Below, one piece after another: positions 1,206 to 51,635 of a stretch of DNA of 64,000 bases. The position numbers were made by a program, and so were the translations under genes. Source of the DNA: an uncultured Methanosarcinaceae archaeon (GTDB lineage: Archaea; Halobacteriota; Methanosarcinia; Methanosarcinales; Methanosarcinaceae); NCBI GenBank assembly GCA_963733675.1, contig CAVTET010000006.1:160001-224000 (forward strand). The letters are read 5' to 3'. Under the pieces are notes generated by a model. The model saw nothing but the letters and a program-made list of their open reading frames with translations. It made no database searches and was not told the origin of the DNA. The first letter of the stretch is position 1. Each line of letters starts with the position of its first letter.

Positions 1206-1292
1206 TAGTGCGAGCGATACAATTCGAATACACGAACTCCTACGAGACTAAAAACTCAACTATCGCCTTTGACCTAATTGGGCAGCTCCAGC
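1206..1292 (-). pseudogene. decayed tRNA-Leu (GAG-type)
   Basis: Minus strand GCTGGAGCTGCCCAATTAGGTCAAAGGCGATAGTTGAG...CTCGTAGGAGTTCGTGTATTCGAATTGTATCGCTCGCACTA is colinear with an archaeal class II tRNA-Leu (GGTCAAAGGCG D-loop, long variable arm, TTCGAAT). Stems are broken. Confidence 0.75.
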
Positions 1293-1377
1293 ATGTCGAT
1301 ACAGAAAGGAACTTTGATAAACCTTTACAAAAAGAACCGGAGAGATAGCTGAAAACTTGAAGTTAAACGATCAAAAT

Positions 1378-1465
1378 TTGTGCGAGGGGTGAGATTCGAA
1401 CCTATGACAACCTTCATAAACGGATCTGAAGTCTGGTGCTTTTGACATAGCTGGATAACACTCGC
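1378..1465 (-). pseudogene. decayed tRNA-Leu (probably TAA-derived; loop now CTTCAGA)
   Basis: Minus strand GCGAGTG...CCAGACTTCAGATCCGT...GGTTCGAATCTCACCCCTCGCACAA. Acceptor stem 6/7 paired, canonical T-loop, other stems mismatched. TATA-like AT run ~25 nt upstream. Confidence 0.75.
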
Positions 1466-1759
1466 ACATTGAAGGGTAAATTTTTATATTTGTTTCTCTT
1501 ATATTTATTTGCTTTTACTTCCCACTAGATGTTCATTTAAATATATTTTTAGTCCAATATATTGTTTCAGGAGTCCAGTATCTTATGAATGATACCATTG
1601 GATCCAAATTCGGTGAATCTTACTCTACATAGGGGGTTTTCGCATCGTCACAATACAACATCCAGAGTTTTGTCAATTCAACATCAACTATAATATTAAT
1701 CCTGAAAGGATATATGGATTAATATCATATTGGACTTCTAAATATAAGGTAAGATCTTT

Positions 1760-3394
1760 ATGAAAGCTTCGGATCTTTTTGTCGCCCAACTTGAAGAAGA
1801 AGGCACATAGTATATTTTTGGAATTCCAGGAGAAGAAAACCTGGACTTTATAGAGTCATTGAGAATTTCAGGAATCAAACTAATCGTGACAAGGCATGAA
1901 CAGGCTGCAGCTTTTATGGCTACAACCTACGGAAGGCTGACAGGAAAACCAGGGGTTTGTTTTTCAACTCTGGGACCAGGAGCTACTAACCTAGTCACTG
2001 GCGTTGTCCAGGCACAGCTTATAGGAGCTCCTTTTATATCTATCTCCGGTCAAAAGGCACTGAATAACAACTGGCAGGGTCGTTTTCAGGTTGTAGACAT
2101 TGTCAGGATGATGGAGCCACTCTGCAAAAAGGCATTGACCATAACTGATCCAGGAATGATCCCTACAGTAATCCGAAACGCCTTCAAGCTTGCGGAAGCT
2201 GAAAGACCAGGAGCTGTGCATATCGAACTTCCAGAAGATGTGGCTGAGACAGAAACTGATGTAGTAGTACAAAAGAGAAGCGAAATGAGAATTCCTTATC
2301 CGAATTTAGAAGCTGTGAGAAAAGCTGCTTCTATGATCTGTGAAGCTAAAAGTCCCTTGATAATGGTTTCTTCAGGAGCTAATAGAAAAGGGATCCCTGA
2401 AGAGCTTGGGAACTTTGCCACAAAAACAGGCATTTATCTGGTACATACTCAAATGGGGAAAGGTGTTGTTCCTGATGATTGTATTTATAGTCTCTTTGCA
2501 ACCGGAATACATTCCAGAGATTATATAAACTGTGGAATCGATGGATCTGATCTGATAATCACTGTGGGCTACAACATTGCTGAATACCCTCCTTATCTGT
2601 GGAACGGGAAACTAGATAAAAGGATCATAAATATAGATTTCGTGGAATCCGTGCCTGACAGATACTTTAACCCTGCTGTAGAAATCATTGGAGATGTCAC
2701 CTCTTCAATCAGGGAACTTGCTGCAAGCATTCAGGAGAAACGGGAATTTCCTTTCTTTGAGAAAACCAGATATTTCATTGAGGGCAAAATAAATTCTAGC
2801 CCCCCTCCAAAATATCCTCCCTTGCCACAATCAGTAGTACAGAGTGTCAGAAAGGTGCTCGGAAGGGAAGATATAATCACATTGGACAATGGAATTTATA
2901 AGCTGTGGTTTTCTCGCCTTTACAAGACATATGCCCCCAACACTGTACTTCTTGATAATGCCCTTGCAGCTATGGGCGGCGGGCTCTCTGCAGGGATTAC
3001 TGCAAAACTTCTTCATCCTAAACGCCGAGTGCTAGCAATCTGTGGGGACGGGGGCTTTATGATAAACTGCCAGGAGCTGGAAACGGCAACACGTTATGAG
3101 ATTCCCGTAGTTGTTCTTATTCTTAATGATAATGCCTTTGGTTTTATCAAATGGGAGCAGAAAAAGATGAATTTTGAGGATTTCGGGTTGGATTATGGAA
3201 ATCCTGATTTTGCTCTTTTTGCGGAGAGTTTTGGAGCTGCAGGCTTTAAGGTTAGAGAAGGTGATGACCTTGCAGAAATTCTGGAGAGATCTTTTTCCCT
3301 AAATAAAGTAACTCTTGTCGAATGTCCTATAGATTATTCGACAAATTATGATAGCTTTTCGATAGAACTAAGAAGCCTTAAATGTGAATTCTAA
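1760..3394 (+). CDS. acetolactate synthase large subunit (ThDP-dependent) with one in-frame TAG at codon 17
   Basis: ATG 1760 MKASDLFVAQLEEEGT*YIFGIPGEENLD is in frame with ORF 1859..3394. RHEQAAAFMA, GPGATN and GDGGF...NDN motifs present. Confidence 0.85.
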
Positions 3395-3719
3395 TCCATT
3401 CTCCGCAGATGTACACAAAATGCCATAGTTCTTTACTCATCGTATAAAAAGGCGCAAAAAAAACGACACTTTAAGGGACTGTAAAAATATTCTTAATAGT
3501 TCTAAGCAAGTAATGATTCCAAACTATTGTTAATATTTATTGACAAAGTGCTAGCTGAAGCAAAAAGATGAGTTTTGATACAAAAGTGTTTAATTTAATA
3601 CAAATAATTCTTAAAATTAATAGTTAAAACTTTTGATAGTTACGATGTGGTGCAAATACGTCCAGATAACAAAAAAGTCTAATTCCAAAATATATACACT
3701 ATCCAACCTAACCTTAATT

Positions 3720-3922
3720 TTATGCTCCGTTAACTGTGAACGCTGCCCAATAATATGGATGGTGGAAATGCTTCTCTTCTGGAGATTATTTGGCCGTTTC
3801 AACATAGCATTTCCCGTATTGTTCTATTTTTTTCTTACTTTCGTCTTCTCATTCGCTTGAACAGTAGCATTTTTCCACATAATCCGCCACTTGGTGAGAA
3901 GTAAGGTCTCTAACCAAAGTTG
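3720..3922 (-). pseudogene. C-terminal relic of a CHAT (caspase-like) domain protein
   Basis: Minus strand reads QLW/RDLTSHQVADYVEKCY...EKHFHHPYYWAAFTVNGA* with stops and a frameshift. QLWLR and HPYYWAAFxxxG are typical CHAT C-terminal motifs. Confidence 0.65.
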
Positions 3923-4199
3923 AAAAACAAATCCCTGGTTTTCCGTATTTATTGTCTTTACGGTAAAAATCAATAATTCATAGATGAATAAAATACATTT
4001 ATGAAAAATATAAACATTTTTTTTCCATTGATTTTAAACTTAGAGGTAAATCACAGAAGGCAGGGAAAACACGCAAGAAAGTACACAAGTGAACAATTTT
4101 TCCAAGTTTTCCTTGGTCGTAGAATTTTGAGTGGCTTGAGTATAAGCAATTAATTTTGAATATACTTTATTCTTAAAAATACATTTAATTCGTAGCTTA

Positions 4200-5294: not shown

Positions 5295-6786
5295 CTGGAA
5301 CCTGCCGATTTATGGACTGAATAAATGATTCTCATATTGTCAGAAGAAAGAAACCACATAAAATGGTCTCTAAAAATCTATTTTGATCCAAAAACGATTC
5401 TTCATCTGATTATTTTATCCTGAATAGTTGAATTCAATATATATATCTATGGAATAATTTTATTTATTTATCCGAAAATGATATGAATATTCTGCCAAAT
5501 TTATATTTTTTAACAAGTATACTAATATTTGAAACTTATTGAAAAAGGAGCCTGAAGAAATATCATAGATAAAATTTATGTTATTGAACTTAAAAAAATC
5601 AATAACATTAAACCTTCTAACATCTGGTATTTGATTAGTTAATGTCCAAGGGATTTTCATGATAAATTACTGAGATAGTATAGGCTAGTATAATCATCAA
5701 GTAGATCGGAATTGTTATTTCCAATGCTCTAGATGTTGTGAAGGTTGGATACAAAATTAGGAGGAGACATGATTGAGACGCAAATCTAACAGCCTCTAGT
5801 ATGAGTCACAACTATCTTACAGGCTATGAGAAAGAGGAGTGTTGGAAGCTCCATGAGGAGAATGAAAGGAAAATAGTTATCGCTTTCTTGGTGAGCATAT
5901 AAGCTTAAGGAGAGGAATTTTCAATATAATCTCAGGCTCTAAGGATGATCTGTACCCAACAGTAGCCCAGGATATCATCAAAAATGAAGAAAATAAAAGC
6001 TAAAACTAAGGAGCATAGATAAATTTCAAAAATTTTCGATTCCAATATTTATCCGGCTCTCTACCCTCAGTTCTCACTTTTTATCCCGTTAGCTACCATT
6101 CATTTATATTAATTTATCATTCCAAAGTTTACTTATTCGATTTTACAATTCACTAATTTTTCAAGAATTTTTTTAACCTTAGTTTAGCAGTACAATTTCA
6201 ATTTGCTACGAGATCCAATCTTTTTGTCAAAAATCATTAAACAGCTTCTAAAATTTCATTAAAATTATCTATGAGTGTCAGTTTCCAATCATACACTCTT
6301 AACAAAAGTAAATATGTCTATCTTTTTTATCCCATTTTAACATTTTTACTATTCAATTTTGTAAACAAAATTTAATATTTTTATCCGTTATCCTGCAATC
6401 TATCAAATTCAATATCAAAAATTAGATCAAAGTTTAGGTATCAAATCTACTATATGCAATGGAGTATGTTTGGTCCACAGCTTTGTATACCACGGAATTA
6501 TCCGAAATCATATGTTTTCATTTAATGATACATAATTAGTACTATATTTACTTTGAAGGAAAGGAATGGTGACAGTTAGATAAGAGGAGTCCAAGTTCGA
6601 GAAGAATAGTATTCAAAAATGATCTGAACAAACATAATCAAAATATTTCCTTCTGAAATCGCGATAGGTAAATCTGTTAAGAAAAGCCTATTGAAAAGAT
6701 ATTGATCAAAAAATATTAGTTGGAAAAGCTCTACAAGATTTCATTTTCGTTCTATTTTCCGTGTTTATTCTTCTGTGCCTGGCCTT

Positions 6787-14929: not shown

Positions 14930-15243
14930 TATAGAACACCGTCGCAGAAATATTTAGCCGCATCAATAACCTTGTTGTTTATTGCTCTCATAACTTGAAA
15001 GGTTTACTTAACCGCTGCTTTATCAAGAAACGATAGCATAGTTCCAACTTCTATTAAGTTATTTCCGGTAAAAAATATATTTTCGCCTAACATTTCTAGG
15101 GGTGATATAGTTTTACTGAAAATTAATAGCTTTAAGCATGCAACTGTACTAAATGAGAATTTAAGTAACAATTTTTATTGTAATTGGTTTATATACCTCA
15201 AGTGCGTATTTTTTTCACATGCTTTTACCATCCCAGGATCAGT

Positions 15244-15383
15244 GGTTCCGTTGCAAAAAATCTGGCTTTTTCACAAAAACATCACAATTCGGGAAGGTAA
15301 TCATTTTAATTCGGGAGAAAATGACACATAAAGGTGAAAATTATAGTGTCAAATTGCAGAAATATTATTTTTGCAACGGAACC
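15244..15383. mobile_element. 140-bp IS6-derived MITE
   Basis: Perfect TIRs GGTTCCGTTGCAAAAA / TTTTTGCAACGGAACC identical to the IS6 copies; no ORF; no TSD. Confidence 0.9.
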
Positions 15384-16610
15384 CTAAAAATTTTGTTCGC
15401 TGGGTTCAAGAATGAAGCTATACTACGCTCTGCACTACGTAGGCTTTTCCGCTGGCTTAATACGAAGGGCGTGACGGCTATAGTCACCGGTGAACGGGGA
15501 GATCCCCCTCTCACTAGATACGGACTCGAAGAGTGCGTCGCAGACTGCGTTATCCTTTTCGATAACAGGATGGAGGAGCAAATAGCCACCAGACGCCTGA
15601 GGATAATTAAGTACAGGGGGTCCAAACATGGCACTAACGAGTATCCTTTCCTGATAGAGGATATCTGTTCTACTAATTACATCACTAGGGCTTGCGCATG
15701 AAGTATCTGCAGGAGGGAGGATCTCAACGGGCATAAAGCGCCTGGATACGATGCTGGGAAGCCAGGGCTACTATCGTGGCAATACAATACTAATTTCCGG
15801 AACAGCCGGTACTGGCAAGACTAGTTTTGGAGCCGAATTCGCCAAAGCTACCTGAGAGCGGGGAGAACGCTGCCTATACTTCGCTTTCGAGGAATCTCCA
15901 AGCCAGGTAATCAGAAACATGAGATCTATAGGTATAGACACTTCCAGCCCTACGTTGATACCGGTTTAATGCAAATAAGTGCCTCACGGCCCATGGCCTA
16001 TGGCTTGGAAATGCATCTGGTAGCCATGCACAGGCTGATAGATAAGTTCAAGCCAGCCGTCGTGATCATAGATCCTATATCAAACATGATCAACGTAGGC
16101 GTTGAGGCCAATGTCAAGTTCACGCTCACGAGACTCGTAGATTACTTGAAGCTCAAGAATATCACTGCAGTATGCACTAGTCTGGTAGAACACGAAAGTA
16201 TCGAGGGCGTAAATGCTCAGGGTATATCTTCTCTCATGGATACTTGGATCAATCTCCGTTTCTTTGAAAATGATGGCGAGCGCAATCGTGGAGTTACTTT
16301 GATAAAGTCAAGAGGCATGGAGTACTCCAATCAGATCAGGGAATATATGATGACTGATAATGAGCATAAAAATCCAATATGTATACCTCTTGGACCTTCA
16401 AGAGGCCTACTTATGGGATCTTCCAGATTTGCTCAGGAAGCGAAGGAGATGGCTGAGGCTGTCACTAAAAGTAAAAACGTGAGGAAGAGGGAAAGAGAAC
16501 TGGAAAATAAGCTAAAATTCCTGGATGCTCAGATAACATAATTAAGCTCCGAGTTTGAGGTGCAGAAAGAGGAGCTTGATAAGCTCACATCCGAAGATGT
16601 GCTCAGAAGT
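15384..16610 (+). pseudogene. kaiC: KaiC-like ATPase, 5'-truncated and frameshifted
   Basis: RRLRIIKYRGSKHGTNEYPF; RISTGIKRLDTMLG; SGTAGTGKT; FEES; GISSLMDTW; KSRGM. Frameshifts and an in-frame TGA; higher GC than flanks. Confidence 0.85.
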
Positions 16611-17517: not shown

Positions 17518-18091
17518 TATTGTTAAGCTCTACTTTAGGTCTTCCTCTATTAAAGGAAAATCTACACAATTCTGAATTAACATTTTTGATAGAAGCTGAT
17601 AGTGAGCGATAAAACTGAAATCGGAGCTTTAATCCCTCTTATTTAATCTTTTGATGAATGTTCTAACTATGTGTGCCAGAACAGTATTGATATAGGGTCC
17701 TTACAAATTGGTTCACTTTTTAAGGAATAATAAGCCTTATTTTCCAGATTTGATTCTATTTATAGTTCCAAAAATAAAAATACGGGTGGGGGATAATTTC
17801 TTTTGATTTAAAGGAATATTGCTCTCAATTTCCTTTCTAAAAGCATATTAATCCTTTTTGATATTGGATTTAGTATAAAGGAAAAATGTAGCAATTATCC
17901 GATTTTTTTGGTATTCTCTTACCCTTAATAAATCTATATCTTTATTAATTAAATTCGAAATATGAGATATTCGATTTTGGTTTCTTATGAGTTTCCATGA
18001 TTTGAAATAAAAACTAAACATCGAAGATTGAATACAAGAAAGGAAGAAAAATAAAGATCTACAAATTACTACTGATTACAGGAAAAAGAGT

Positions 18092-18179
18092 TAGTGCGAG
18101 GGGTATGATTAGAAAGCACGAGTTCCTACTAAAATAGGCCCTCAATCTATCGTTTTTGACCTTGCTGTGCAACTCTAGT
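18092..18179 (-). pseudogene. decayed tRNA-Leu (GAG)
   Basis: Minus strand ACTAGAGTTGCACAGCAAGGTCAAAAACGATAGATTGAGGGCCTATTTTAGTAGGAACTCGTGCTTTCTAATCATACCCCTCGCACTA, 88 nt, colinear with tRNA-Leu; anticodon loop TTGAGGG. Confidence 0.75.
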
Positions 18180-18809
18180 ATATTTACGGACAGATTTAAG
18201 AAATCGCCGGAGGGTCAACTATAACACAAGCACAGGCTTTAAGATAAGCTCAACATTCAATTTGGTTTATTGAGCGCATGGTTTTACTTTAGGGCAGTTG
18301 AAAAATTGGCTGTAATAAGCTTAAAAAGATAGTATCCCTTCAAAGTCAGGCCCTATGTCCTGCGAAACTCTTTACTCACTTTTCAACATCCTATTTTTCC
18401 TGTGCAGCATATCCGTTGTGTACCTAAACATCAATTCTTTACTGGAGTTTATTTCTTCGTATTCGCCATTCTTACCAATGTCACAACCAATATCACAGGT
18501 CTCTTTTAGGCAGCTTGTTACTAAAATATAAGAACGAGCCTAATTCAAAGCATATAATTACAATTGGATATGTGTATTATTACATATCCACCACAGTTAA
18601 TATTATATCTTTATGTTTATAAGCTGGCAAAAGTTTGCTGCGTAATACTGCTTCAAGGGTGTAAGGCAACCAAAGAGCCACATTGTCAACTATTCACTGT
18701 TATTACATTACCCTATCGAAATGGTACTCATTTATAACTGAAAAAATATTAACTATTGACGTTGCACTTTTTTTGTTGTGAAAGAAAAAGGATACAAAAT
18801 TAATAAGAT

Positions 18810-19040
18810 TTTACATAACTTTCGATACACTGTCGATTTCCCTGAAGGCATCTAGGACTTCTGAGCCCATTATATCCTTTCGGTCTTTGAACTTTTCAGC
18901 CTGAAGGTCAAGAATGGAAGAGATAACCTGAAGATTATTCTTGATCCTATGGTGAATTTACCTTTTACGGACATATTCAATATTTGTCAGAGTTTCTTTG
19001 CCTTTTTCCTCTTCTTAATATTCTAAAACTGTTGCTTCCA
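18810..19040 (-). pseudogene. HisKA_2-type histidine kinase fragment
   Basis: Minus strand NIEYVRKR*IHHRIKNNLQVISSILDLQAEKF (H-box). Confidence 0.75.
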
Positions 19041-19213
19041 TTCGAATAGGAATTTTTATTTCATAAAAATAAATTCACTTTGGCCATTGACTACACGTCC
19101 TTTTCCAGTGGCTAAAATAATACTATGATCAATGTTATAGAGCTTTCTTTTTAAAGTTCTCTTAGCGGCATAAACCCAGTAGTGAGGTAAAAAATAAAAT
19201 GAGGTAAAAATAA

Positions 19214-28531: not shown

Positions 28532-29149
28532 ATGAGAGGCAAACTGATTACACTCGAAGGTATAGACGGTTCAGGTAAAAGTATGGTTGCAAATAAACTT
28601 CAGGAAAATCTTGAAATTAGCGCATTTGATCCTGTATTTACCAGGGAGCCAACAAGAGGTACACTTACTGGGACTGCTGTGGAGAAAGCCATTAAGTTGG
28701 ATACAGACCAACTTGCTGAGCTCTTTCTTTTTACAGCTGACCATGCTGAACATCTGGCAAAGATTGTTAAACCTGCACTTGGATGTGGAAAATCAGTTAT
28801 TTCTGATCGCTATTCCGACAGCTGCTATGCTTATCAGGGTGTAACCTTACAAAATCATTTGAAGAATTCGTTAGAATGGATAAAAAATCTCCATAGAGAT
28901 TGGACCATTGTCCCTGACCTGACTTTTCTATTTGATATCAGCCCCGAAATATCAGTTGAACGCTGTTTGATGCGAGGAAATCAAAGCAAGTTCGAAAAAC
29001 TAGAGTTTTTGAGAAAAGTCCGAGAGCTTTTCCTCAGTCTCGCATGCGAAGACCCTGAGCGCTTCATCATAATCGATGCTTCTTGTTTTCCTGAACGCGT
29101 AGAAACGGAAGTCACAGAGAAAGTTCTGGAGTTTCTGCATAGAAAGTGA
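28532..29149 (+). CDS. tmk: thymidylate kinase
   Basis: LEGIDGSGKS, TREP, ISDRYSDS.YAYQG. Confidence 0.95.
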   Translation: MRGKLITLEGIDGSGKSMVANKLQENLEISAFDPVFTREPTRGTLTGTAVEKAIKLDTDQLAELFLFTADHAEHLAKIVKPALGCGKSVISDRYSDSCYAYQGVTLQNHLKNSLEWIKNLHRDWTIVPDLTFLFDISPEISVERCLMRGNQSKFEKLEFLRKVRELFLSLACEDPERFIIIDASCFPERVETEVTEKVLEFLHRK

Positions 29150-33535: not shown

Positions 33536-36500
33536 GTGACTATTTTTGATCGTTGGAGTGCCGATAAACTGGAGATCAGAGTCCAAGAACTGACAGCTGA
33601 GCTGGAAAAAGCCAATCAGGCATTAATACCGAGAATGAGCTGATTAAACTTAAGGATAAATTCGAAGCCGAAATAACGCTCAGATACAACCGTATTCTTG
33701 ATGGAATCAACCGGATCTTCAGCATTGTAATGCAGGACAAAACAGAAGAAGAGTTGAGAAATGAGTGTCTGTCCATAGCTCTGGAAGTGATCGGCAGCAA
33801 ACTAGGTTTCGTTGGCTTAATTGGTGATAACTGGCTACTGCATGATATTGCAATCAGCGACATGGGATGGGGGCAGTGTCTGATGTATGACAAGACTGGG
33901 CATCGCCGTCCCCCAGGAAATTTTGTTGTGCATGGCTTGTACTGCAATATCATTAACAGAGAATAAAGCTTCTTTACTAACTATCCGCTGTCACATCCAG
34001 ACAGTATCGGCCTGCCACACGGTCATCCCTTGATCAAGTCGTTTCTTGGAGTGCCCCTAGTCTTAGATGGTAAAATAAAGGGCTTGCTTGCGGTTGCAAA
34101 TCGTGAAAGTGGGTATAACTGCGAACAGCAGAAGGATCTCTAAGCTATCGCGCCAGCGATTGTGCAGGCACTTTATAGAAAAAGGTCGGAAAATGAGCGT
34201 GAGTTGGCAGAAAAAACGTTGCGTTTGTCTGAGGAAAAATTTGCCAAGGCTTTTGCAGACAATCCAGCCGCCATCGCGCTTACCAATCTCGAAGACGGGA
34301 TTTTTCTGGGCGTGAATGATACATGGGTGTCTCTGAGCGGTTACAGCCGGGATGAGGTAATTGGCCATTCTGCCAGAACAATGTACATTTGGCCGCCTGC
34401 CGAGGCTGCGGACCGCTTCGTGCTAGAGTTGCGAAAAAAAGGCTACCTATACGGATGGGAGCAGGAGTTCTACAAAAAATCCGGCGAAGTTTACATTACG
34501 CAGTTGTCGGCGAAGATCCTGACAGTACACGGAAAAAACAAATCATTTCGACGTTGTTGGACATCACAGAGCGAAAGCAGGCTGATAAGGAACGAACGCG
34601 ACTGTTAAAGAGTATTCAACAAAAGAATGACCTACTATCCGCATTGATCAACAGTATTACCGATGAAATTTGGTTTGCATACACAAATAGAAAATATACA
34701 TTTATTAATTCTACCGGACTCTGCGAGTTCGACATCAACAACGGGGGTGATACCGAGGTGGAACAACTCGCTAAGAGTCTGAAAATCTATCGTCCTGATG
34801 GCAGTCTTCGCCCAGTAGAGGACTTTCCTCCCCTACGTGCCCTGCAGGGTGAAATCGTGAAGAGTTATGAACTAATCATTCGCATCTGAGTTGGCTGATT
34901 GCTATAAGATGCGTATAGTAAAATTTTAGAAACTGAGGTGTCAGAACAACTAGAAGAAGTCTCATACCTAGTTGATGGATGGCATACCTTCCTTGCCAAC
35001 AAATTTCCACTTTATGACTCACACGGTAAACCCTATGCGATATGTGGCATATCTACTTACATCACAGAGCGCAAGCAGACACAGTTTCGTCTGAAGGCCG
35101 ACCTAGAGGCTCTGACCAGAATGCATGAGTTGAGCGGGAAACTTCTAGGAACTGGTGGCATCCAGCCGCTGTTGGATGAAATCATGTACTCGGCGGTTGT
35201 CATCGTGGGTGCTCAGCTAGGTACTCTTCAACTTTTAGAAGATGATCCGCTGCGAATTGTCTCCCAGTATGGTCATAAGCAGCCCTTCCGGGAGTTTTTT
35301 TGCATATGCTGAGAACCGGGGGCTTCAGAATGCAGGGAATCGATGCAACGCGGAGGGCGTGTGATTGTTGAGGACATTGAGACGAGTTCCCTATTTGCCG
35401 GAACGCCTTCTTTGGATGTGACGGGGTGCGAGCGGTGCAATCCATGCCAATGGTAAGCCGTCCTGGCGAGCTGCTGGGTATTCTCACGACCCAATGGAAT
35501 GTTCCGTATTCCCCCGACGATCACGATCTCTGGCGGATCGACCTGCTGGCACGGCAGGCAGCCGACATGCTAGAACAAGTTAAGTCAGTATGGAAGCTCT
35601 CAAGGAGAGTGAAGAACGTTTCTGTGTGATGGCTAATGCGATTTCACAGTTGGCCTGGATTGCTTATCCAGATGGCTATATCTATTAGTATAACGAACGC
35701 TGGTACTCTTCACCGCACCTGAGCAGATGGAAGGGTGGGGTTGACAGAGTGTTCACGACCCAGAAGTGCTGCCAAAAGTACTGGAGCAGTGGAAGGCTTC
35801 GCTTGCTATGGGGCAGATGTTTGATATGGAGTTTCCCTGCGCGGCGCGGATGGTATTTTCCGCCCGTTCCTTACTCGTGTTTTGCCTCTGAAAGATGTTG
35901 CAGGAAATATCCTTCAGTGGTTTGGGACAAATACTGATGTCACAGAACGAAAGAGAGCCGAGCAGGAACGTGAGATGACGGTGAAGTTCTTACAACTCAT
36001 GAACAAGTGTAAGGGGACAGTAGACTTGGTTCATTCTGCCGTTAATTTCTTCCGCGAGCGCTCCGGCTTCGAAGTCGTTGGCATCCGGCTCAAAGATGGT
36101 GACGATTATCCATACTTCGAATCAAGCGGGTTCCCCGCAGAATTCGTGAAGTTGGCGAACAGTCTCTTCTTGCGAGATGCTTCAGATCAGCTTATCCGCG
36201 ATAGTGACTGTTACCCTATTAATGAATACATGTGTGGCAACGTTATATGTGGAAGGTTCGATCCATATAAGCCATTTTTCACGACGCTGGGGAGTTTCTG
36301 GACCAACTGCACCACGCGGGAACTGCTGGCCACTACGACTGATGCCGACCGCCAGGCTCGCACGCGTAACAGATGTAATGGTGAAGGGTATGAATCCGTG
36401 TGGCTCTGATAGCTCTGCGCGTGGGTGAGAGAGGCTAGGTCTTCTCCAGTTGAACGGCAGACGTAAAGGGCAATTTCCCCCGGAAACTATCTCGATGTGG

Positions 36501-39155
36501 GAACGGTTGACGGACTATCTGGCCGTGGTTATAGCCAAAGCACAAGCTGAGGAATTTTTGGAGAAAGCACACGAGAATCTCCAAACGCAATCCGAGGAGT
36601 TACAGGCTCAGTCCGACGAGATCCAAATACAAAATTAGGAGTTACAGACTCAGTCAGAAGAGCTTCATGCAGCATATAAAACTCTGCAGGAGAGCGAGAT
36701 CAAGTACCTCGACCTGTTCGAGACAGTGCAGGAGGTCTTCTTCATCGATCGACTCATCTACGATGAACAGGGTAATTTTATCGACTGGATTTTCGAGGAT
36801 CTCAACCCAGCTGGATTTGAGCTCCTCGATCTGAAAGGCCCGGCTTTCGAGCAAGGCTGTTATGTTCCAGTACCACAGTCCTTACGTGGATAAGGAATTG
36901 TTGTTAACGGTGATCGTCTGATCTCCGCCCAAATGGACATCACAAAACAAAAAAAGCACAAGCGAAGTTAAAAGAAATACTTGACAATTTAGAAATGTTA
37001 GTTAAAGAACGTACAAATGAACTTGAAACAGCTTTTAATTTATTGAAGGGAATCGAAAAAGGTCTTGCTGAAGCTCAAAGAATATCTCACATTGGAAGCT
37101 GGGATTGGAATATTGTAACTGATGAAACATCTTGGTCTGATGAGACATATCGCATTTTTGAGCTTGATCCTCAAGAATTTAGCGAAACTTGCAACTCATT
37201 TTTAAGTAATGTGTACCCAGAAGGTCGAGATTATGTGGATGATGCCGTCAAAAAAGCTTTGAACGGAGAACCCTTGATTATTGACTATCGGATCATCTTA
37301 TCCAATGGAAAAGAGCGGGACGTCTATGTCGAATCCGAACTTATTTTCGATGAAAAAAAATATCCATATTAAAATTAAAGGAACGGTGCAGGATATTACA
37401 GAACGCAAGCTATTAAAGGCAGAACTAGATTCTATAGCATGTCTGCCTCAGAAAACCCCCAATCATGTGGTACGTCTGAGCAAAGGCCTTATCATAAACT
37501 ATGCCAATCCTGCTGCTCAAGTGTTGTTGACAAATTGGGGTAGTGGTATCAATCAAAAAGCTCCTACAACAATAACAGATATGGCCGTTGCAGCCTTGGA
37601 TGATGGTGTCCAGCGTAAGTTTGAGTGCAACTACGCCAATAACGCATACCTTATAAATATCACTCCGTTCCCTAAATCTGGCTACGTCAATCTTTATGCC
37701 TGTGACATCACAGAGCGAATAAGAGGGGACGAAATGTTAAAGTTGAAATTAGAAGAACTTAGTCGCTCAAATGAAGAATTGGAACAATTTGCTTATTTTT
37801 CGTCTCACGATTTACAGGAACCCCTGCGGATGATAACAAGTTATTTGCAGCTTTTACAAAGAAGATATCAGGGTAATCTTGATGATAAGGCTGATAAATA
37901 CATACACTTTGCTGCTGATGGGGCTTCACGTATGCAAAATTTGATAAACGATCTTTTAGAGTTCTCTCGAGTAACTAGAAGTGATAGAGAGCCTAAAATT
38001 ACAAATTGTGAATTTATTTTGAATCAGGCACTTTCCAATTTAAAATTGATGATAAAAGATAATAAAGTTACGTTTCTGTTGCAAAAAATCCTACTATTTA
38101 AGTAAAAACTTTAGTTTCACAGCAAAAAACATAAAAATGCAAAATACTTCTCAGATAACATTTGTTTGCGTTTTTAGGTAATACTTTGTCATTTTTGAGT
38201 TCACTTATTGCAGATAGGTAAGCTAAATTTCTATCTACAGTTATTACATTTGGAATTTGATTATGATTAGAACTCAAAGCTTTCTTAAAAAACGTTTCGC
38301 AGCATTTCTATCACGCTTTGCACTCAGCATAAAATCAACTGTGCTTCCAGTTGAATCAACTGCTCTGTAAAGATATTTACCTTTTACTTTGATATAGGTT
38401 TCATCAACTCTTTACAAATAGTTAGTTAGTATTAAATGCCTTCTTATCCTCTTTTCCATCTCAGGTGAATATTGATGTACTCATCTCATGATTGTTGTAT
38501 TGTCGACTTTTATTCCTCTTTCTGCCATCATTTCCTTTAAATTTTTATAGCTCAATGGATATTTTCAGTACCATCTTACTGTTTGCAGAATGATCTCACC
38601 TACAAAGTGTTTTCATTTAAAGGGATTAGGTAGCATATTATATACTCTTAAATTCCTATTTATTTCATAGTATCGATCTCATATTTTTTGCAACGGAACC
38701 CTTTTTATTCTATTGTATCATTAGAAAGGATTTTTTGCAACGGAACCAAAGTTACTATATCTCATGATCCTTTACCTTATGTAATGGCAGATCCTACCCA
38801 GCTGATTCAGGTATTTCAAAATCTGATATTCAATGGAATAAAATTCAAGAGTGAAGAAGCACCCAAAATTCACGCTTCTGCAGAGAAAAAAGCTAGTGAA
38901 TGGGTATTTTCAGTGCAAGATAACGGAATTGGAATTGATTCGCAATATTCGGGAAGAATCTTTGAAATATTTAAAAGACTGAATAGTAGGGAAAAGTATT
39001 CTGAAACAGGAATAGGGCTTGCAATTTGTAAAAGAATTGTAGACAGACATGGTGGCCGCATATGGGTAGAATCTAAACTAGGCAAAGGTTCGACTTTTTA
39101 TTTCACTTTACCAATCAATCCCATCGAATTTCAAAAACTAAGTTTTAACACATAA
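33536..39155 (+). pseudogene. large multi-sensor (GAF/PAS) histidine kinase, fragmented and IS6-interrupted
   Basis: GAF and PAS/PAC fragments (DITERK), SHDLQEPLR H-box, HATPase ([28 protein letters not shown]). Many frameshifts and stops. Confidence 0.9.
38072..38747 (-). mobile_element. composite IS6 relic with 8-bp target duplication
   Basis: AAAGTTAC at 38064-38071 and 38748-38755. Deleted IS6 transposase; internal TIR ending at ~38699 followed by ~47 bp of a second IS6 end. Confidence 0.9.
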
Positions 39156-42959: not shown

Positions 42960-43813
42960 GGTTCCGTTGCAAAAACTTCAAAAAAATATGTAAATCTATA
43001 AGTGATTAATAAAAATCAAAACATTCAAGGAAAATGTACTAACATTATAAAACTATACCAAATAATTGATTAATGTATTTGACTTCATTAAGAACAGAGT
43101 AATTTAGATCGATTACTTGTCCTTTTTTGATCATATTCATAGCTTCAATTCTTTTTAAAGTTTTATTAGCAGATCGAAAAAACTGAAATCCTAACATTGG
43201 ATTAACGATTCGCTTTATAGATCTATGATCTTGTTCTATAATGTTATTCAAATACTTGATTTGTCGAATGCCTACGTTTTTAGGTAGTATTTTATCAATT
43301 TTTAGTTTATCTATAGCAGGTGGATAAGCTGGATTCTTATCAACGGTTATTAATCTTGGAATTTGATTATGATTAGAACTTAAAGCTTTCTTAAAGAATC
43401 TCTTCGCTGCCTTTCTATCTCGTTTTGCACTTAACATGAAATCAATTGTATCTCCATTTGAGTCAACTGCTCGGTAAAAATATTTCCATTTACCTTTTAC
43501 TTTGATATAGGTTTCATCAACTCTCCACGAATCATTTGCTGGTCTTAAATGTCTTCTTATCTTCTTTTCTATTTCAGGGGAATATTGATGTACCCATCTC
43601 ATTCTAGTACTGTGATCAACTTGAATTCCTCTTTCTATCATCATTCCCTTTAAATTTCTATAGCTCAATGGATATTTTAAGTACCATCTTACATTCAATA
43701 GGATAATTTCTCCTTCATAATGCTTCCATTTAAAGGAATTAGATAGCATATTACTATCTTTGGTTTTCTTTTTATTCTATTGTATCATTAGAAAGGATTT
43801 TTGCAACGGAACC
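42960..43813 (-). mobile_element. IS6-family element, intact
   Basis: TIRs GGTTCCGTTGCAAAAA; 854 bp; no TSD. Confidence 0.95.
43045..43749 (-). CDS. IS6-family DDE transposase
   Basis: [34 protein letters not shown]. Confidence 0.95.
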   Translation of the reverse strand: MLSNSFKWKHYEGEIILLNVRWYLKYPLSYRNLKGMMIERGIQVDHSTRMRWVHQYSPEIEKKIRRHLRPANDSWRVDETYIKVKGKWKYFYRAVDSNGDTIDFMLSAKRDRKAAKRFFKKALSSNHNQIPRLITVDKNPAYPPAIDKLKIDKILPKNVGIRQIKYLNNIIEQDHRSIKRIVNPMLGFQFFRSANKTLKRIEAMNMIKKGQVIDLNYSVLNEVKYINQLFGIVL

Positions 43814-44939: not shown

Positions 44940-44973
44940 AATATCAACTCCAAGATAAGCAAAAGGAATACCA

Positions 44974-46835: not shown

Positions 46836-46854
46836 CTTTCATTTTAAATTAACG

Positions 46855-48715
46855 GTGAACTCCCCCTCTCTGTCAGGTTTATATCCTTCGATGAAGGGGC
46901 TTCCTTCGAGTAATTCCTTCACGTGTTCTCAAGTTTGAGATCCATCGGGAATTCTGTATTGTCGAAGATATCAACAATTTGTTGATAGCCCGTCCACAAG
47001 ACATTTTGTTATAGGAAATGTAACATAATACTGATAGAACTATTTAGATCCCTATCAATATTGTTCCCGCCACCACAAATCATAACTCACTTCCAAGAAG
47101 GCATATCATGAAGTTTTCACAGAACAATATTTCTAGTTGTTGTTCTTCGTCAATTCTTATTCACTTTTACCAATAAGTTTTGCTTATCGGTCATGAATTG
47201 AACAAATTTACATACTTTACCTAGAACCTCAATCGAATGATTTTGCCCTTTATTTTGTTTAGTTTTCTTTTCCTTTTTACCGTCTTTTACTTTAGGTTGA
47301 GCCATTTATGCACACTAAGGTCATCTACTATGATAGTTTTAGCTTTAGTGTTTTCAACCATAGTTTTGGAAAGTTTTTGTTGAAAATCTTTAACTTGATT
47401 TACTTTCTTTTGACTCATTTTAGTAACTGGTTTAGCTATTCTTAGATATGTCTTACTTTTTGTAGGACCTTTTAACGCCAATACAATGATCCTTGATTTA
47501 GCTTTATCAATCTTAGGATCCCAATAATTATCAGGTCTAGATGATTTTACTTCGAAAAATTTACCATAAGTATTGATAGCAGTAATTATCTTCGTGATAC
47601 CTAAATCAATAGCTTAATATATTCAGTTATCAAAATAAAAATCTTCATATCCAATTCATAAGCAACGCAAATAAAAAATTTACCTCTTGCTTTGTAAGGA
47701 TTATCGTTTAAAATTTCAACATGTTTGATTTTCAACCATTAACTAAATTACCTACATCAAAGGATATAGAAACATCATTCACATTACGTGAAAATGTAAT
47801 TATATTATTTTTAACTTTGAAGCCGCTTTGATTGTAGGTTAGAGTCATAAGATAATTCCTACCTTTGAAGCTAGGTGGTCATGCTTTCAAATCTCCAGTT
47901 TTAATATGGCCAAAAAAGGAATGATAACTACCATCAAGTTTTTTCAAGATACCTTGAAGTGTTTTGGAATATACTATGTTGAATTCAGTACTCCATTTTT
48001 TTGAAATCATGAAGTTTATTTTGTTTTTCAGCGTATTTTACACTACGCATTTCTTTATCATAAGCATCCTTTCTATTCGCAAGAGCGAAGTTATAGACAA
48101 TCCTACATTTGTCAGACCGTTCCCAATGCACATTAGTCTGTTCTTCAGTTGCATAAATCTGTATTTTCTTTGCTAGTTGCATGTTTGCTCTGACTCTCAA
48201 CATATTTTTTTAAAATATCAAATGTCAATTGTCTTTTTGTTGCTATGAAATATGATCTTAACCAGAATGTGTCTTACCACAACATTGTTTTAACATCAGA
48301 AAAATTTCTTCTGATTTCTCTTGAAGAGATTGTTTTGATAGTGTTGATATATTTTGGAATATCCAATGTTGGTTTTGAGGTTAAAATCATGTGAAAATAA
48401 TCTATATCACACCCACCATTTAGAAATTTTACATCAAAAGTTTTGCTTATATCATTGATTTTGGATTTTAGTGAATACACTATCTTTTGACTATGAAGAG
48501 TTTTTCTTCGGCATTTTACGCATTGTATAAAAGGATAGTTGATTGTATAAACAGAATAATTCTATTGATCGAGGTTATACTTTATAGTTTTAATTTTAAA
48601 GTAAAAACTATAACTATCTATATCTTTTCCATCTTAAAAAGGATCGAAAGTTGATGGCTTTTATCCCATACGTGCCACTCTGATGCGTGTTGAAGAAGGG
48701 GACTTCTCGCCTTAG
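46855..48715 (-). mobile_element. IS200/IS605 element (tnpA plus tnpB), both pseudogenized
   Basis: tnpA relic ~48240-48586 (DYFHMIL..KP...INTIKTISSREI); tnpB relic ~47000-48182 (CRIVYNFAL, AIDLGI, IIVDDL, DRDLN); GAAGGGG hairpin-type ends at both sides. Confidence 0.8.
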
Positions 48716-49343
48716 AGTTAAAAGACTTAAACTCCACTATGCTAAACTGCATATAAGCTTGTCTAAATTCTCTACAGTATGCGACTATGTAAAGTTCTAG
48801 AAGCACGACTTATTTAATTTATTTTTGCTGAAAAATATAAATATTCAGAGAATATATTAAAACTGACAACAATATTTTTTTGGTAGATATCTCTGGAAGA
48901 TCGTGGAAATAATGCATAAATTTGCAAAGTGCTCTCTAAAAAATGAATATTTAGCCAGATAGCATTTCGAAAAATTTCCAAATCGAAGAAAATCTAAATG
49001 GAAATTGGAAAAATTAAATTCTATGTTTTTTTGCCTCTAAATACACTACTTTGCCACTTTTAGCCCCTACCTAAAGTTTAATAAATTTGTTTTAGTCTGA
49101 AAATCGAAGACAAGAGAAACTTTGAATATATGAACTTTTACTAGAGAAAGTGAAATAGATAAGGTATTCAATACTAACCTCAGATTTCAGTACAATTGAA
49201 TGAACGAAAAAGAGTGAAAAAACTGAATGCTTCTGAAACATAATTCGGGGCGTATTACAGAGCACAACTCTTCAAAGATAAAATTGATTAATGATCGTGT
49301 TTTTACTTAGCTAAACAGATTCGAATCTTGCAAAATAGGTAGG

Positions 49344-50207
49344 TTGAACATGGAAAAGAACGTTATGGATGCTCTCCTGGAGATTATCGAGATACGAGCT
49401 TTGACGAACAGAGCAAGAGTTGCTATGGGAATACGGGATCCAAATTTTAAGGTTCTCGAAAGTGCGTGGAAAGCCCAGGAAAAAGGGTATGCACAGGTCA
49501 TCCTGGTAGGTAGCAAAAAGGAAATCGATAAAATTGGAACAGAGCTTGAGGTAGTAGATACCGAGGATCCAGAAAAAGTTATTGTGGAACTCTTGATATC
49601 GAGAAAAATCGATGCAGCTATAAGGGGAACTGCAAAGTCATCTGGAACCCTTGCACATCTCAAAGAAGCACTTGGAAAGAAAAGCGTCTGCAGACTTGCA
49701 CTACTTCTGACAGCTGCTGGGAAGCCATTCTTTCTTGCCCCTGTAGGGATCGATGAAGGTAATACCATTGCAGATAAGATTCACATGATTACTCTGGGTT
49801 CCGAATATATCAGTAGATTAGGAATCAACCCTGTAATAGGTGTGCTCTCAGGTGGTAGAATTGAAGATATTGGTCGGAACACAATTGTGGACAGAACCCT
49901 CGCAGATGGTGAATTAGTTGCAAATATGGCTAGGAAACTTGGGATGAATGCTAAACATTACACCATTCTTATTGAAGATGCCATAAAAGAATCTAACTTT
50001 ATCGTTGCCCCAAACGGGATCTCAGGAAATCTTATCTTTCGGACTGTTGCTTTCCTTGGTGGAGGTGACGGACTTGGAGCTCCTGTGCTAATGGATGATT
50101 ACGTTTTTGTGGATACTTCAAGGGCAGGAGGGCATTTTACTAAAGCCATAATGCTTGCGAGTGCATTATCTCACTTGAATAAGGAACGAAAAAAGAAGAC
50201 TCAATGA
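49344..50207 (+). CDS. mtxX: methanogen marker protein 4 (MtxX)
   Basis: DAAIRGT, FFLAPVGIDEG, VLSGGRIED.GR, ILIEDA, GISGNLIFR, FVDTSR. Confidence 0.85.
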   Translation: MNMEKNVMDALLEIIEIRALTNRARVAMGIRDPNFKVLESAWKAQEKGYAQVILVGSKKEIDKIGTELEVVDTEDPEKVIVELLISRKIDAAIRGTAKSSGTLAHLKEALGKKSVCRLALLLTAAGKPFFLAPVGIDEGNTIADKIHMITLGSEYISRLGINPVIGVLSGGRIEDIGRNTIVDRTLADGELVANMARKLGMNAKHYTILIEDAIKESNFIVAPNGISGNLIFRTVAFLGGGDGLGAPVLMDDYVFVDTSRAGGHFTKAIMLASALSHLNKERKKKTQ

Positions 50208-50410
50208 AAGCTATTGAGACACATGTCTTGTCGTAAAACGTGACTACAAGACAGAAAACAAAAAGCCCAATATCGCAATCCAACCCTTGAAAGATATGCC
50301 TAAGAAAAAGAATTAATGTCCAGCTGTGGAAACTGCATATACTGAAGAACAAAAAGGATTTATTTCCTTTAGTATCTTTAGATAAGAAGATGCACAAACT
50401 GTAGATGGAT
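50204..50410 (+). pseudogene. mtxA: probable MtxA (MtrA-like) relic
   Basis: ATG overlaps the mtxX stop; shifted frame reads CLVVKRDYKTENKKPNIAIQPL, resembling the MtrA/MtxA start WPxVxGDYxxGNPxSxIAVxTL; then degenerates. Confidence 0.45.
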
Positions 50411-50417
50411 TTGAGAA

Positions 50418-50852
50418 AATGAAAGCTCATGAAATCACACAGCAGGATTTCGCTGGGGAGAAAAATAGATTGCTTAAGGAAAGGAACACCGAAGTAAGTT
50501 CGATTGATGTTTGACTGAAGCTATATGATTAGGTTCTTCTAAGGACGACAGATCTACCCATTCTTAAGATGCTCCATTATGAGAGAGCTCTCTTTCTCTA
50601 TTATACAAACAAGGATTTTTTCAAAGAACTTCGAAATGTACGCAAAATGGAATTGATGGCTCATCAACAAATCAGAACTAAAAGAGTGTCATATTTGCCT
50701 TTGAAGACTCCTATCAACAATATAAGAAACTTTCCGGCAGAATGTACACAAATGATGAGACTTTAAGAGCAAAACCATTCCCTGCAAAGCATTCCATTTC
50801 AGATTATAATATTGCAGGGAAGATGGGTGCAGGTGCTCATATTCACCTTATA
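50418..50852 (+). pseudogene. eroded hypothetical protein
   Basis: Continuous protein-like reading MKAHEITQQDF...LHYERALF...MELMAHQQ...AKPFPAK broken by stops and frameshifts. Confidence 0.4.
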
Positions 50853-51548
50853 AATGAACTGTTAATATTTTAAAATTTTTCAAACAGAAAAATTAACAGA
50901 AATAATATATTACAGCTGAAAATAATAACAGATCTATAGATAGTGCTCTATTCTAAAATTATGGAACTTGAAGATTATATCTAACTCTTTAAAGAAAAGA
51001 TAAAAAGGGATTTTTTGGAATTTAATGAATTAGGAAACGAGATCTATACTGGATTTTTGATTATGAACCTGAAAAATAGCTTATGGCTTACTATTACAGG
51101 GTTCGGAGAGTCATCAGGGGAGCTAAGATAATTTTCAACAACCTAAGTCAACCGGTATAAAAACTGAAGAATACATAGAACCTCAAACTAGACTTAACAG
51201 AATTTTGTATTAATGGAGTCGGTGGGTAATTAATTACATTCAGTACTTTGTGTATCAGAACTCACAAGAAACTAAAATTGATATCTCAAACATATAATTT
51301 ACTTAATACCGATAAAAATTTATTTATGGGTCAGAACATACCCAAAAAGTTGAATACTAGCTAAATTCTTCCATTATATTTCTGAATATTTATATTTCAG
51401 CCATTAAGTTTCTTGAAATAGGATCAGGGGTAAATTGCTTAATAATATTTCCCATAATGTCCTAGTTGCAGCAAGAATTTAAGTCAAAGGCAGTAGGTTC
51501 AGAGTAAAACAAGAGGACTATATTTTATTGAGAAGTAATAATCAATGT

Positions 51549-51635
51549 GCGAGAGTTCAAAGCCATGCCAGAAATGCCAGTTTCAGAGCCTGGTCTTTTA
51601 GAAATTCGGGGGTTTAAATCGCACACCTCACACCA
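51549..51635 (+). pseudogene. decayed tRNA-Leu (CAG)
   Basis: GCGAGAGTT...CCAGT-TTCAGAG-CCTGG...TTCGGGGGTTTAAATC...CCTCACACCA; anticodon CAG, long variable region, CCA end. Confidence 0.7.

Follow-up and report, generated by a model that had tools for sequence, protein, structure and literature searches.

The four tRNA-Leu-like sequences described here, relics A to D, are whole-gene tRNA pseudogenes and DNA-level duplicates, colinear with complete tRNA-Leu genes and accompanied between them by leader, flank and trailer sequence of native type. They are probably dead tRNA-Leu modules that were duplicated or relocated whole, as DNA, among the ancestors of one small clade of Methanosarcina and thereafter drifted neutrally, the bias towards Leu having arisen via an integration hot spot. 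The window (the whole 64 kb stretch that was analysed, C6:160001-224000) is part of a 3.92 Mb Methanosarcina genome, here G000, whose assembly comprises 15 contigs and is rated 92% complete, so that all relic counts are lower bounds. In content the window is ordinary chromosome: Pfam searches turned up housekeeping genes, several insertion sequences (IS) and broken KaiC and sensor-kinase genes, and, IS elements apart, nothing recognisable as mobile or defence cargo. The relics are as follows.

1208..1292, minus strand: relic A, a full-length tRNA-Leu(GAG)-like pseudogene, the downstream member of a tandem pair
1378..1465, minus strand: relic B, a full-length tRNA-Leu(TAA)-like pseudogene, the upstream member of the pair
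18092..18179, minus strand: relic C, a full-length tRNA-Leu(GAG)-like pseudogene
51549..51635, plus strand: relic D, a full-length tRNA-Leu(CAG)-like pseudogene; its CAG sequence is of the type usually seen in this genus

When the five native tRNA-Leu genes were used as a profile nhmmer query against the whole 3.92 Mb genome, matches were returned at 1208-1289(-) for relic A (model positions 4-86, E = 1.3e-11, 46.6 bits), 1380-1465(-) for relic B (1-86, E = 5.9e-12, 47.7 bits), 18094-18176(-) for relic C (4-86, E = 1.5e-13, 52.8 bits) and 51549-51632(+) for relic D (1-85, E = 4e-5, 25.8 bits). The preliminary description had reported four tRNA-Leu-colinear sequences of whole length with broken stems, of the GAG (twice), TAA-like and CAG types, and this was borne out: E values range from 4e-5 to 1.5e-13, coverage of model positions 1-86 or 4-86 (1-85 in relic D) supports whole-gene copies, and the nearest native type is GAG for relics A and C, TAA for relic B (65/84 positions, with TCA now at the anticodon position) and CAG for relic D (64/84 positions shared with the CAG gene of G013). 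Scored with a tRNA-Leu covariance model built for this analysis (R1), relics A to D reach 57.2, 45.5, 47.7 and 36.6 bits and retain 19, 15, 14 and 13 of the 23 cloverleaf stem pairs tallied per tRNA-Leu, respectively. The native genes score 70-90 bits with nhmmer and 89-110 bits with R1, and keep 22-23 of the 23 pairs. ARAGORN called no tRNA gene in the window, and Rfam gave no match to the window at the gathering score and no tRNA (RF00005) match even at E≤10. The four relics, rejected by these finders and with broken stems, are not functional tRNA-Leu genes. The window thus holds no intact tRNA, as had been noted, and no non-Leu relic either, as a search with all 48 tRNAs called by ARAGORN matched only these four sequences inside it.

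The relics were copied together with their surroundings. The leader of the native CAG gene, CTCAATGT, matches the TCAATGT-GCGAG leader of relics B and D, so the TCAATGT previously seen before GCGAG in two copies is confirmed and equals the native leader; the leader of relic B, CTTCAATGT, is of native type. The upstream flank of B-type copies matches that of the native TAA gene from position -103, and the trailer of relic D resembles the native GAG trailer. Relic C has 225 bp of downstream flank in common with the GAG locus of G007 and 420 bp of upstream flank in common with a relic in G017, while approximately 65 bp upstream of relic D recur upstream of the CAG gene in both G004 and G013. These comparisons identify the copies as duplicates, made at the DNA level, of whole gene modules comprising leader, gene and trailer.

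As sequence on both sides of the gene was copied too, with native 5' leader and upstream flank on one side and 3' trailer on the other, SINE-like retroposition is argued against. Such spread, in which tRNA-Leu transcripts would be reverse-transcribed and then inserted, had been proposed at the outset and agrees with the full length of the copies. A CACCA end is also present on relic D and on copies of F1, a related unit found six times elsewhere in the genome that consists of a leader, a tRNA-Leu-like sequence and a 49-aa zinc-ribbon ORF, but CCA is likewise encoded by two native genes, GAG and CAA, and this end is therefore non-discriminating. Eukaryotic SINEs of tRNA origin spread via RNA; their copies start where the transcript does and carry target-site duplications. 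Like them, the relics form a dispersed, decayed family from one tRNA type; unlike them, they include untranscribed flanks, and target-site duplications are absent at both inserts that were examined. With a native 3' trailer, 65-420 bp of upstream flank and a leader that RNase P removes from mature tRNA all co-copied, RNA-mediated spread is already contradicted and we consider it extremely improbable.

DNA-level duplication of modules can be followed further in the segments around the relics, compared here with four close relatives, G031, G095, G096 and G097.

330..1209, minus strand: IS5-type insertion sequence with DUF4096 and DDE_Tnp_1 ORFs (Pfam), inserted at TTA directly 3' of relic A
1466..1566, minus strand: upstream leader of the A/B pair unit, about 100 bp, with an outer edge, GAACAAYATATTGG, that is identical in three copies of the unit
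17527..18408, no strand assigned: relic-C segment, 882 bp, present in G000 and G095 and absent at this locus in G031 and G096 (BLAST)
50297..51808, no strand assigned: relic-D segment, 1.5 kb and intergenic, with an unrelated 1.1 kb segment here in G031 and G096

The A/B pair unit shares 81% identity over 367 bp with a second location in the same genome (C3:279761-280119) and 84% with a location in G096 (C24). The DNA to the right of its junction, from 1567 onwards, abuts a homologue of C1:352.6 kb instead in 4/4 close relatives. As all four have another neighbour there, the junction beside the pair is derived in this genome; it contains an 8 bp microhomology, which is typical of illegitimate recombination. 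The IS5-type copy on the other side has boundaries at 329-332 and 1205-1209 in 48 BLAST matches and termini GAGGCTATCC; where the pair unit occurs in other copies, this position is taken by a miniature element (MITE) with the same termini.

G095 has a better preserved orthologue of relic C at the same locus (68.5 bits), G096 has a copy at a different place (65 bits), and changes in the 5' acceptor strand are common to all three. In G096 the module lies within an insert of approximately 830 bp, at a site where G000 is uninterrupted, and the two relic-C inserts have only a module of approximately 250 bp in common. No target-site duplication or terminal repeat was found at the edges of the relic-C segment. 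Relic D has orthologues at the same locus in 2/4 close relatives (L094, 34.4 bits; L097, 19.8 bits). From this distribution, relics C and D predate the split from the sister species, and recent proliferation is not supported. In the relatives examined, no functional tRNA-Leu gene occupies any of the four loci, in agreement with the expectation that these are not ordinary tRNA-Leu sites.

Several of these features would suit small, non-autonomous DNA cassettes, made up of a tRNA-Leu module and adjoining DNA, that some recombinase copied or moved, which would make the relics a true DNA-spreading, tRNA-Leu-derived family. The same sharp 5' edge of the A/B unit occurs in three contexts (window position 1566, C3:280121 and G096:C24), the window junction differs from that in all four relatives, the 882 bp segment and the approximately 830 bp insert are each missing at the corresponding site elsewhere, and two of the six F1 copies retain just the final 28 nt of the tRNA, the remnant to be expected of a T-arm crossover. 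However, both relic-C inserts lack target-site duplications and terminal inverted repeats and have only the approximately 250 bp module in common, flank homology stops at varying distances so that the ends are not fixed, the copies are 70-86% identical and thus not recent, no outgroup polarises insertion versus deletion, and there is no recombinase nearby. We regard cassettes as unlikely. A MITE or IS-type DNA transposon was rejected on the same identities, variable flanks and lack of inverted repeats; the neighbouring IS and its MITE do show the features of such transposons. A more specific proposal, that the clade's tRNA-Leu modules were moved as discrete DNA cassettes by casposases, or by integrases acting in trans, that recognise the tRNA-Leu 3' end, and that the relic 3' ends still work as secondary landing sites, is rather improbable. 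If cassette movement did occur, the relics would be fossils of a non-autonomous mobile family derived from tRNA genes, a prokaryotic, DNA-level counterpart of SINEs.

Links between tRNA-Leu genes and mobile elements are evident elsewhere in the genus. In M. mazei, casposons and two integrase elements target the tRNA-Leu 3' end (PMC4779613), and 'tLEU2', a site with partial tRNA-Leu similarity, is used in vivo (PMC10359463). In G004 (C1:160-180 kb) and G007 (C1:1611-1631 kb), 10/10 relic matches are 3' fragments that start at model positions 15-35, and an integrase lies approximately 50-400 bp from the nearest fragment in each stretch; the native CAG gene is inside the G007 stretch and approximately 12 kb outside the G004 stretch. 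Cas1 genes of casposase size lie between a native tRNA-Leu gene and a relic in G013 and G007, and defence cargo is found between relics in G035 and G013.

Archaeal integrating elements leave tRNA gene fragments by duplicating part of the gene at their att sites (van der Gulik et al. 2023, PMC9897764). The four relics resemble fragments of this kind, as described there, in being non-functional, scored low or rejected by gene finders and tied to tRNA genes as integration targets, and the canonical pattern is present in the genus in the 3' fragment arrays beside integrases in G004 and G007. However, relics A to D are full-length, have their own upstream leader and flank no recognisable element, so classical att duplication is not their direct source. 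The attL/attR duplicate of an integrase was rejected as a candidate, the relics being full-length and bracketing no tyrosine-recombinase element. Among the 14 integrase matches in the genome (PF00589), none is within 5 kb of any relic or native tRNA-Leu gene, and tblastn with nine of the genome's own integrases found nothing within 5 kb of any relic.

With the M. mazei casposon targets (PMC4779613, PMC6977970 and PMC10359463) the relics share genus and isotype, a CGCA end followed by AT-rich DNA in relics A, B and C, and the occurrence of a tRNA-Leu-homologous region that is not a gene. They differ in that this genome and its four closest relatives lack casposons and have no Cas1 (PF01867) match, so that the Cas1-solo casposase expected with a casposon insertion site is absent. 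Homology among relic-C copies ends 14 bp past CGCA, and no duplicated 14-mer was seen. The relics may have been carried by mobile DNA, as suggested earlier, in that some relic segments have changed place and fragments adjoin integrases and casposases in relatives, but the four relics themselves have no target-site duplication, terminal repeat or recombinase.

Whole-module duplication followed by neutral drift accounts for the state of the relics. Over 17 relics, 251 stem pairs survive compared with 252.9 expected under random substitution (P = 0.62); tested singly, relic A has P = 0.056 and each of the other three P>0.6. The GC content of the four (0.43-0.48) has fallen from that of the native genes (0.56-0.59) towards that of the genome (0.36). 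Between species, relic D changes faster than its own flanks, with 79/87 positions identical to L094 versus 693/740 in the flank, and 44/87 versus 559/724 for L097. The random loss of stems, the fall in GC and the faster change of relic D together show that the relics drift neutrally, like unconstrained DNA, towards the AT-rich composition of the genome.

Selection for tRNA-like regulatory RNAs, or for sites serving as spares or decoys in the attachment of casposons and integrases, is accordingly not supported, and we judge it highly improbable. The TCGCAC followed by AT-rich DNA that is kept at the 3' end of relics A, B and C does resemble the CGCA-led 14 bp casposon target (PMC4779613 and PMC6977970), at exactly the length where relic-C homology stops, and contigs from RNA libraries cover the A/B region (1178-1785) in 4/4 runs of one study at a depth of 6-18, compared with 0-3 for a neighbouring gene. 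However, those contigs reveal no strand, ends or processing and the library may contain DNA; the 3' part is no better kept than the rest in 13 relics (0.73-0.75 versus 0.72 in the D arm), relic D has been lost from 2/4 relatives, and the clade has no casposon to decoy.

An isotype census, in which the same 48 tRNAs were run against the genome, supports the Leu-specific excess that had been suspected, the isotypes not being represented at similar frequency genome-wide. At E<1e-3, the non-native loci were 12 Leu, three Cys and none of any other isotype, and ARAGORN called two further degenerate Leu copies. Overall there are at least 17 extra Leu-like copies for five working tRNA-Leu genes, and approximately five Cys-like ones. 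tRNA-Ser, with four genes of equal length, has left no relic. The excess thus concerns Leu specifically, Cys showing a smaller one, and the Cys relics are not known to be linked to mobile elements.

Ordinary segmental or tandem duplication with relaxed selection, in a genome rich in pseudogenes and IS and with Leu merely the largest and most duplicated family, would need no mobile elements. Tandem tRNA-Leu(GAG) pairs occur in relatives, the second copy has been lost at the native GAG locus here, full-length extra copies lie beside the TAA gene in G097, and the broken genes, IS elements and junction microhomology of the window are in keeping with it. However, families of 3-4 genes (Ala, Arg, Gly, Pro, Ser, Thr and Val) have no relic at E<1e-3 compared with 14 for the five Leu genes, and in relatives integrases and casposases are physically associated with tRNA-Leu fragments; this explanation is improbable.

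We infer instead that both the Leu bias and the whole-gene copies stem from the status of tRNA-Leu genes as an integration hot spot. These genes would be the main site of integration and recombination in the genus, used by casposons and tyrosine-integrase elements, and repeated integration, excision and recombination there would generate fragments as well as additional copies. The mobile genes may since have been lost from this lineage, and rearrangement may have scattered the leftovers. The outcome is similar to birth-and-death turnover of tRNA genes, in which whole-gene DNA duplicates lose function and drift, as in the GAG pairs that have lost one member here, but 17 extra copies per five working genes and the restriction to Leu with few Cys are unusual for such turnover.

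The four sequences in the window are full-length tRNA-Leu-like copies, here called relics A to D. ARAGORN found no tRNA in the 64 kb window; Rfam returned no match at the gathering score and, with the cutoff relaxed to E ≤ 10, still no tRNA. The five native tRNA-Leu genes, the working genes of this genome (G000; other G numbers are related Methanosarcina genomes, C numbers contigs), were made into a profile and searched against the whole 3.92 Mb genome with nhmmer; the window matches were as follows.

Window 1208–1289, (−) strand: relic A, model positions 4–86, E = 1.3e-11
Window 1380–1465, (−) strand: relic B, model positions 1–86, E = 5.9e-12
Window 18094–18176, (−) strand: relic C, model positions 4–86, E = 1.5e-13
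Window 51549–51632, (+) strand: relic D, model positions 1–85, E = 4e-5

A tRNA-Leu covariance model trained on 18 native genes of the genus (model R1) scored the relics at 36.6–57.2 bits, compared with 89–110 bits for the natives. Cloverleaf pairs are kept at 19/23 in A, 15/23 in B, 14/23 in C and 13/23 in D. The nearest isoacceptor is GAG for A and C, TAA for B, which has TCA at the anticodon position at present, and CAG for D. The leader TCAATGT preceding B and D is of native type, and the working CAG gene has CTCAATGT. Profile, covariance model, pair counts and leader all bear out the preliminary description of these sequences.

The window (C6:160001–224000) belongs to an assembly of 15 contigs with 36% GC, rated 92% complete, in which ARAGORN called 48 tRNAs. 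Eight are tRNA-Leu, including five good isoacceptors and two odd, AT-rich calls at C1:314268 and C1:338637. The general Rfam tRNA model scored 150 of 283 candidates genome-wide, missed some natives and gave five sub-threshold matches, four of them Leu-like. As it was too insensitive for decayed copies, the census was made with nhmmer, using each of the 48 tRNAs as a query. Of 25 non-native loci, 15 were Leu-like (12 at E < 1e-3) and 6 Cys-like (3 at E < 1e-3), and the remaining 4 were weak matches to other isotypes (E 0.6–4.4), one of them a real tRNA with an intron. Adding the two odd calls of ARAGORN gives 17 extra Leu-like copies versus five working genes, and Cys is the only other isotype with relics. 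The four tRNA-Ser genes, which are as long as tRNA-Leu, have no relics, so the bias is not due to gene length. The restriction to Leu that had been noticed in the window is thus real, and relics of all isotypes at similar frequency were not found. Prokaryotic tRNA gene sets are usually lean, with few pseudogenes, and what integrating elements are known to leave behind are short 3′ pieces; in this genome, the dead whole-gene copies of a single isotype outnumber its working genes by more than three to one.

In the related genomes, model R1 also matches tRNA-Ser and class I tRNAs at 30–56 bits, so its scores alone give no relic counts there and it was used only to locate candidates. Several full-length copies of intermediate score (57–87 bits) are present in each of G095, G096 and G097. 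Whole-gene copies are therefore a feature of the clade, and the set in G000 is its most decayed. The tRNA-Cys-like relics at C1:178181, C1:179141, C3:561096, C4:736176 and C4:736688 are all outside the window, and three of them share the orientation of a native tRNA-Cys gene that follows 0.5–1.5 kb downstream.

Both the 5′ leaders and the 3′ trailers of the tRNA-Leu relics are of native type, and sequence farther out also matches native genes or other relics. The tandem A/B pair, of which B is the upstream member, shows 81% identity across 367 bp with a second pair at C3:279761–280119, and the TAA-like copies align to the native TAA gene from about position −103. For relic C, 225 bp of downstream sequence recur at the GAG locus of G007 and 420 bp of upstream sequence beside a relic in G017, and approximately 65 bp upstream of relic D is common to the CAG genes of G004 and G013. 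As a copy of a mature tRNA would have none of these flanks, leaders or trailers, retroposition is very unlikely, and the suggestion of an RNA-mediated or SINE-like family is not upheld. We conclude that the relics were made at the DNA level, as whole-gene pseudogenes.

The sharp 5′ edge that the A/B pair unit has in the window recurs unchanged at C3:280121 and in G096:C24; both members of the G096 pair are better preserved (59.8 and 58.4 bits). The sequence from window 1567 onwards, which lies upstream of the TPP-enzyme gene, has a different neighbour in all four close relatives, namely the homologue of G000 C1:352.6 kb. The junction at window 1566, which has 8 bp of microhomology, is therefore derived. 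On the other side of the pair is an insertion sequence.

Window 330–1209: IS5-type element, TTA target, directly 3′ of relic A, termini GAGGCTATCC

This IS has 48 BLAST hits in G000. A MITE of approximately 290 bp with the same termini, present in nine copies (including C1:987338, C3:402176 and C4:120785), takes its position in other A/B-type pair copies, and in several genomes the IS and the MITE both lie immediately 3′ of tRNA-Leu relics.

Relic D was found in the same position at two of the four orthologous loci in close relatives (L094–L097), and L095 and L096 (G031) carry an unrelated 1.1 kb segment there. No tRNA was detectable at this locus in any of the four. Relic C lies in an 882 bp segment that is at the same locus in G095, where the relic is better preserved (68.5 versus 52.8 bits), and is missing there in G031 and G096. 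The G096 homologue (65 bits) sits elsewhere, within an insert of approximately 830 bp that shares only about 250 bp with the 882 bp segment. The corresponding point in G000, C4:488331, is contiguous, which fits insertion or deletion alike, and orthologous flanks that could polarise the event were recovered neither in G031, G095 and G097 for this point nor in G097 for the cupin locus of relic C. In five more distant relatives, only the neighbouring cupin gene is conserved and no tRNA-Leu adjoins it. As the relic-C copies of G000, G095 and G096 share changes in the 5′ acceptor strand, the pseudogene predates these species. None of the loci examined is syntenic with a working tRNA-Leu gene in relatives.

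The sharp common edge of the A/B unit and the reciprocal presence and absence of the relic-C module between genomes are what would be expected had the relics moved as DNA cassettes. However, no transposon hallmarks were found: the 882 bp segment has no target-site duplication at its edges, and the G096 insert has no duplication or inverted repeat. We consider such mobility improbable. The flanks of the G096 insert (G096:C11:297832–299823) are 94–96% identical to G000 C4:487848–489424, and other loci common to these genomes are well below this, at 88–92%. Window 17690–17890 and 18837–19154 contain short repeats that are found many times over in genomes of the genus.

The closest native gene was randomly mutated, with the number of substitutions matched to each relic, and surviving stem pairs were counted. 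Over 17 relics, 251 pairs were observed versus 252.9 expected (P = 0.62); individually, P exceeded 0.6 for each of B, C and D and was 0.056 for A. Among 13 relics, the 3′ part was not conserved above the rest, as selection for att or casposon use would have left it. The GC content of the four relics is 0.43–0.48, between that of the natives (0.56–0.59) and the genome (0.36). Relic D is identical to its counterpart in L094 at 79/87 positions, compared with 693/740 in the intergenic flank, and to the more distant L097 at 44/87 compared with 559/724. This faster change is expected of GC-rich sequence freed from constraint in an AT-rich genome. The relics are old and decaying neutrally, and the stem decay, the drop in GC and the rate at relic D speak against the idea that they are conserved RNAs.

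In four RNA libraries from a single study, contigs 95–99% identical to the window cover 1178–1785, a stretch that takes in the derived junction, the A/B leader and both relics, at a depth of 6–18 versus 0–3 over the adjacent gene. At relic C, one RNA contig spans the upstream flank and the 5′-most 34 nt. These contigs carry no information on strand, ends or processing, the libraries may include DNA, and parts of the window lacking contigs are uninformative. The A/B region is thus only not demonstrably silent.

The window consists of housekeeping chromosome, IS elements and broken genes.

Window 43045–43749, 53388–54092 and 62417–62821: two IS6/IS240-type transposase genes and an IS4/5-type fragment

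The apparent broken genes (window 15219–16541 and 34389–39155) are two KaiC fragments and a PAS/HisKA/HATPase sensor kinase spread over several ORFs. PADLOC, applied to 19 window ORFs, returned only a weak Csa3-like helix-turn-helix match. A single weak match to a CRISPR repeat model at window 28870–28906 (27 bits, E = 0.94, below the gathering score of 45) is inside a thymidylate kinase ORF and probably due to chance. G000 itself offers no direct hint as to the source of the Leu bias: no Cas1 was found in it, and none of its 14 integrase matches is near a relic. A 72 aa ORF near the relic at C4:21489, taken by eye for an integrase N-terminus, had no Pfam hit and no tblastn support and was discarded.

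In other Methanosarcina, tRNA-Leu and mobile elements are linked. In G004:C1:160–180 kb and G007:C1:1611–1631 kb, all 10 relic matches are 3′ fragments in direct orientation that begin at model positions 15–35, with an integrase gene approximately 50–400 bp from the nearest. The native CAG gene is inside the G007 stretch and about 12 kb outside that of G004. G013 and G007 each have a casposase-sized Cas1 gene with a native tRNA-Leu on one side and a relic on the other, the relic in G007 being full-length, and defence-type cargo (BREX, SIR2, CHAT, nucleotidyltransferase) is found between relics in G013 and G035. In published work, casposons and two integrase elements of M. mazei use the tRNA-Leu 3′ end (PMC4779613, PMC6977970), casposons also use in vivo a region called ‘tLEU2’ that resembles part of tRNA-Leu (PMC10359463), and partial tRNA fragments from integration are well known in archaea (PMC9897764). 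Given this link and the published casposon targeting, we infer that an integration hot spot of the genus at tRNA-Leu would have produced the Leu bias of the relics; the inference concerns the bias, not the passage to full-length copies. Apart from the ‘tLEU2’ remark, full-text literature searches turned up no account of full-length tRNA-Leu relics as a family in Methanosarcina.

The relics suggest that the tRNA-Leu integration hot spot of Methanosarcina casts a genomic shadow that outlasts the elements themselves. For an archaeon, they amount to a dated record of neutral decay, and they mark old rearrangement points. Annotation pipelines and island finders based on tRNA similarity will stumble over them, and their 3′ ends are testable candidates for secondary casposon targets. 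Should they be no more than neutral debris, which is the reading favoured by the evidence, their biological consequence is small.

A repeated unit of G000, F1, comprises a conserved leader, a tRNA-Leu-like sequence, a Shine–Dalgarno site and, directly downstream, a 49 aa four-cysteine zinc-ribbon ORF. Copies are located at C1:314268, C1:338637, which still passes as tRNA-Leu(UAG), C3:109303 and C7:49685, and also in G031:C51; 3′-only copies at C5:322336 and C6:10857 retain just the final 28 nt of the tRNA. Of the six F1 copies, three have an intact ORF, and the ORF was not found in 60 other genomes of the family. Only chromosomal genes and IS elements, and no element genes, were found around the six copies (Pfam, 33 ORFs). 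An apparent surplus of kept stem pairs in F1 copies mostly disappeared once a CAG gene of the genus type was allowed as ancestor. Among the natives, GAG is a single gene at C5:73289 and a tandem pair in G004, G006, G007, G013 and G015; the upstream gene order at C5:73289 is that of the pairs in G004, G006 and G007 (three loci compared). The native CAG gene at C3:104822 is syntenic with those of G004 and G013. In G000, the usual CAG sequence type of the genus is represented only by relic D and the F1 copies. The anticodon stem of the C3:104822 gene (ATAGG/CCTAT) is that of the GAG gene, which may reflect gene conversion or an anticodon switch.
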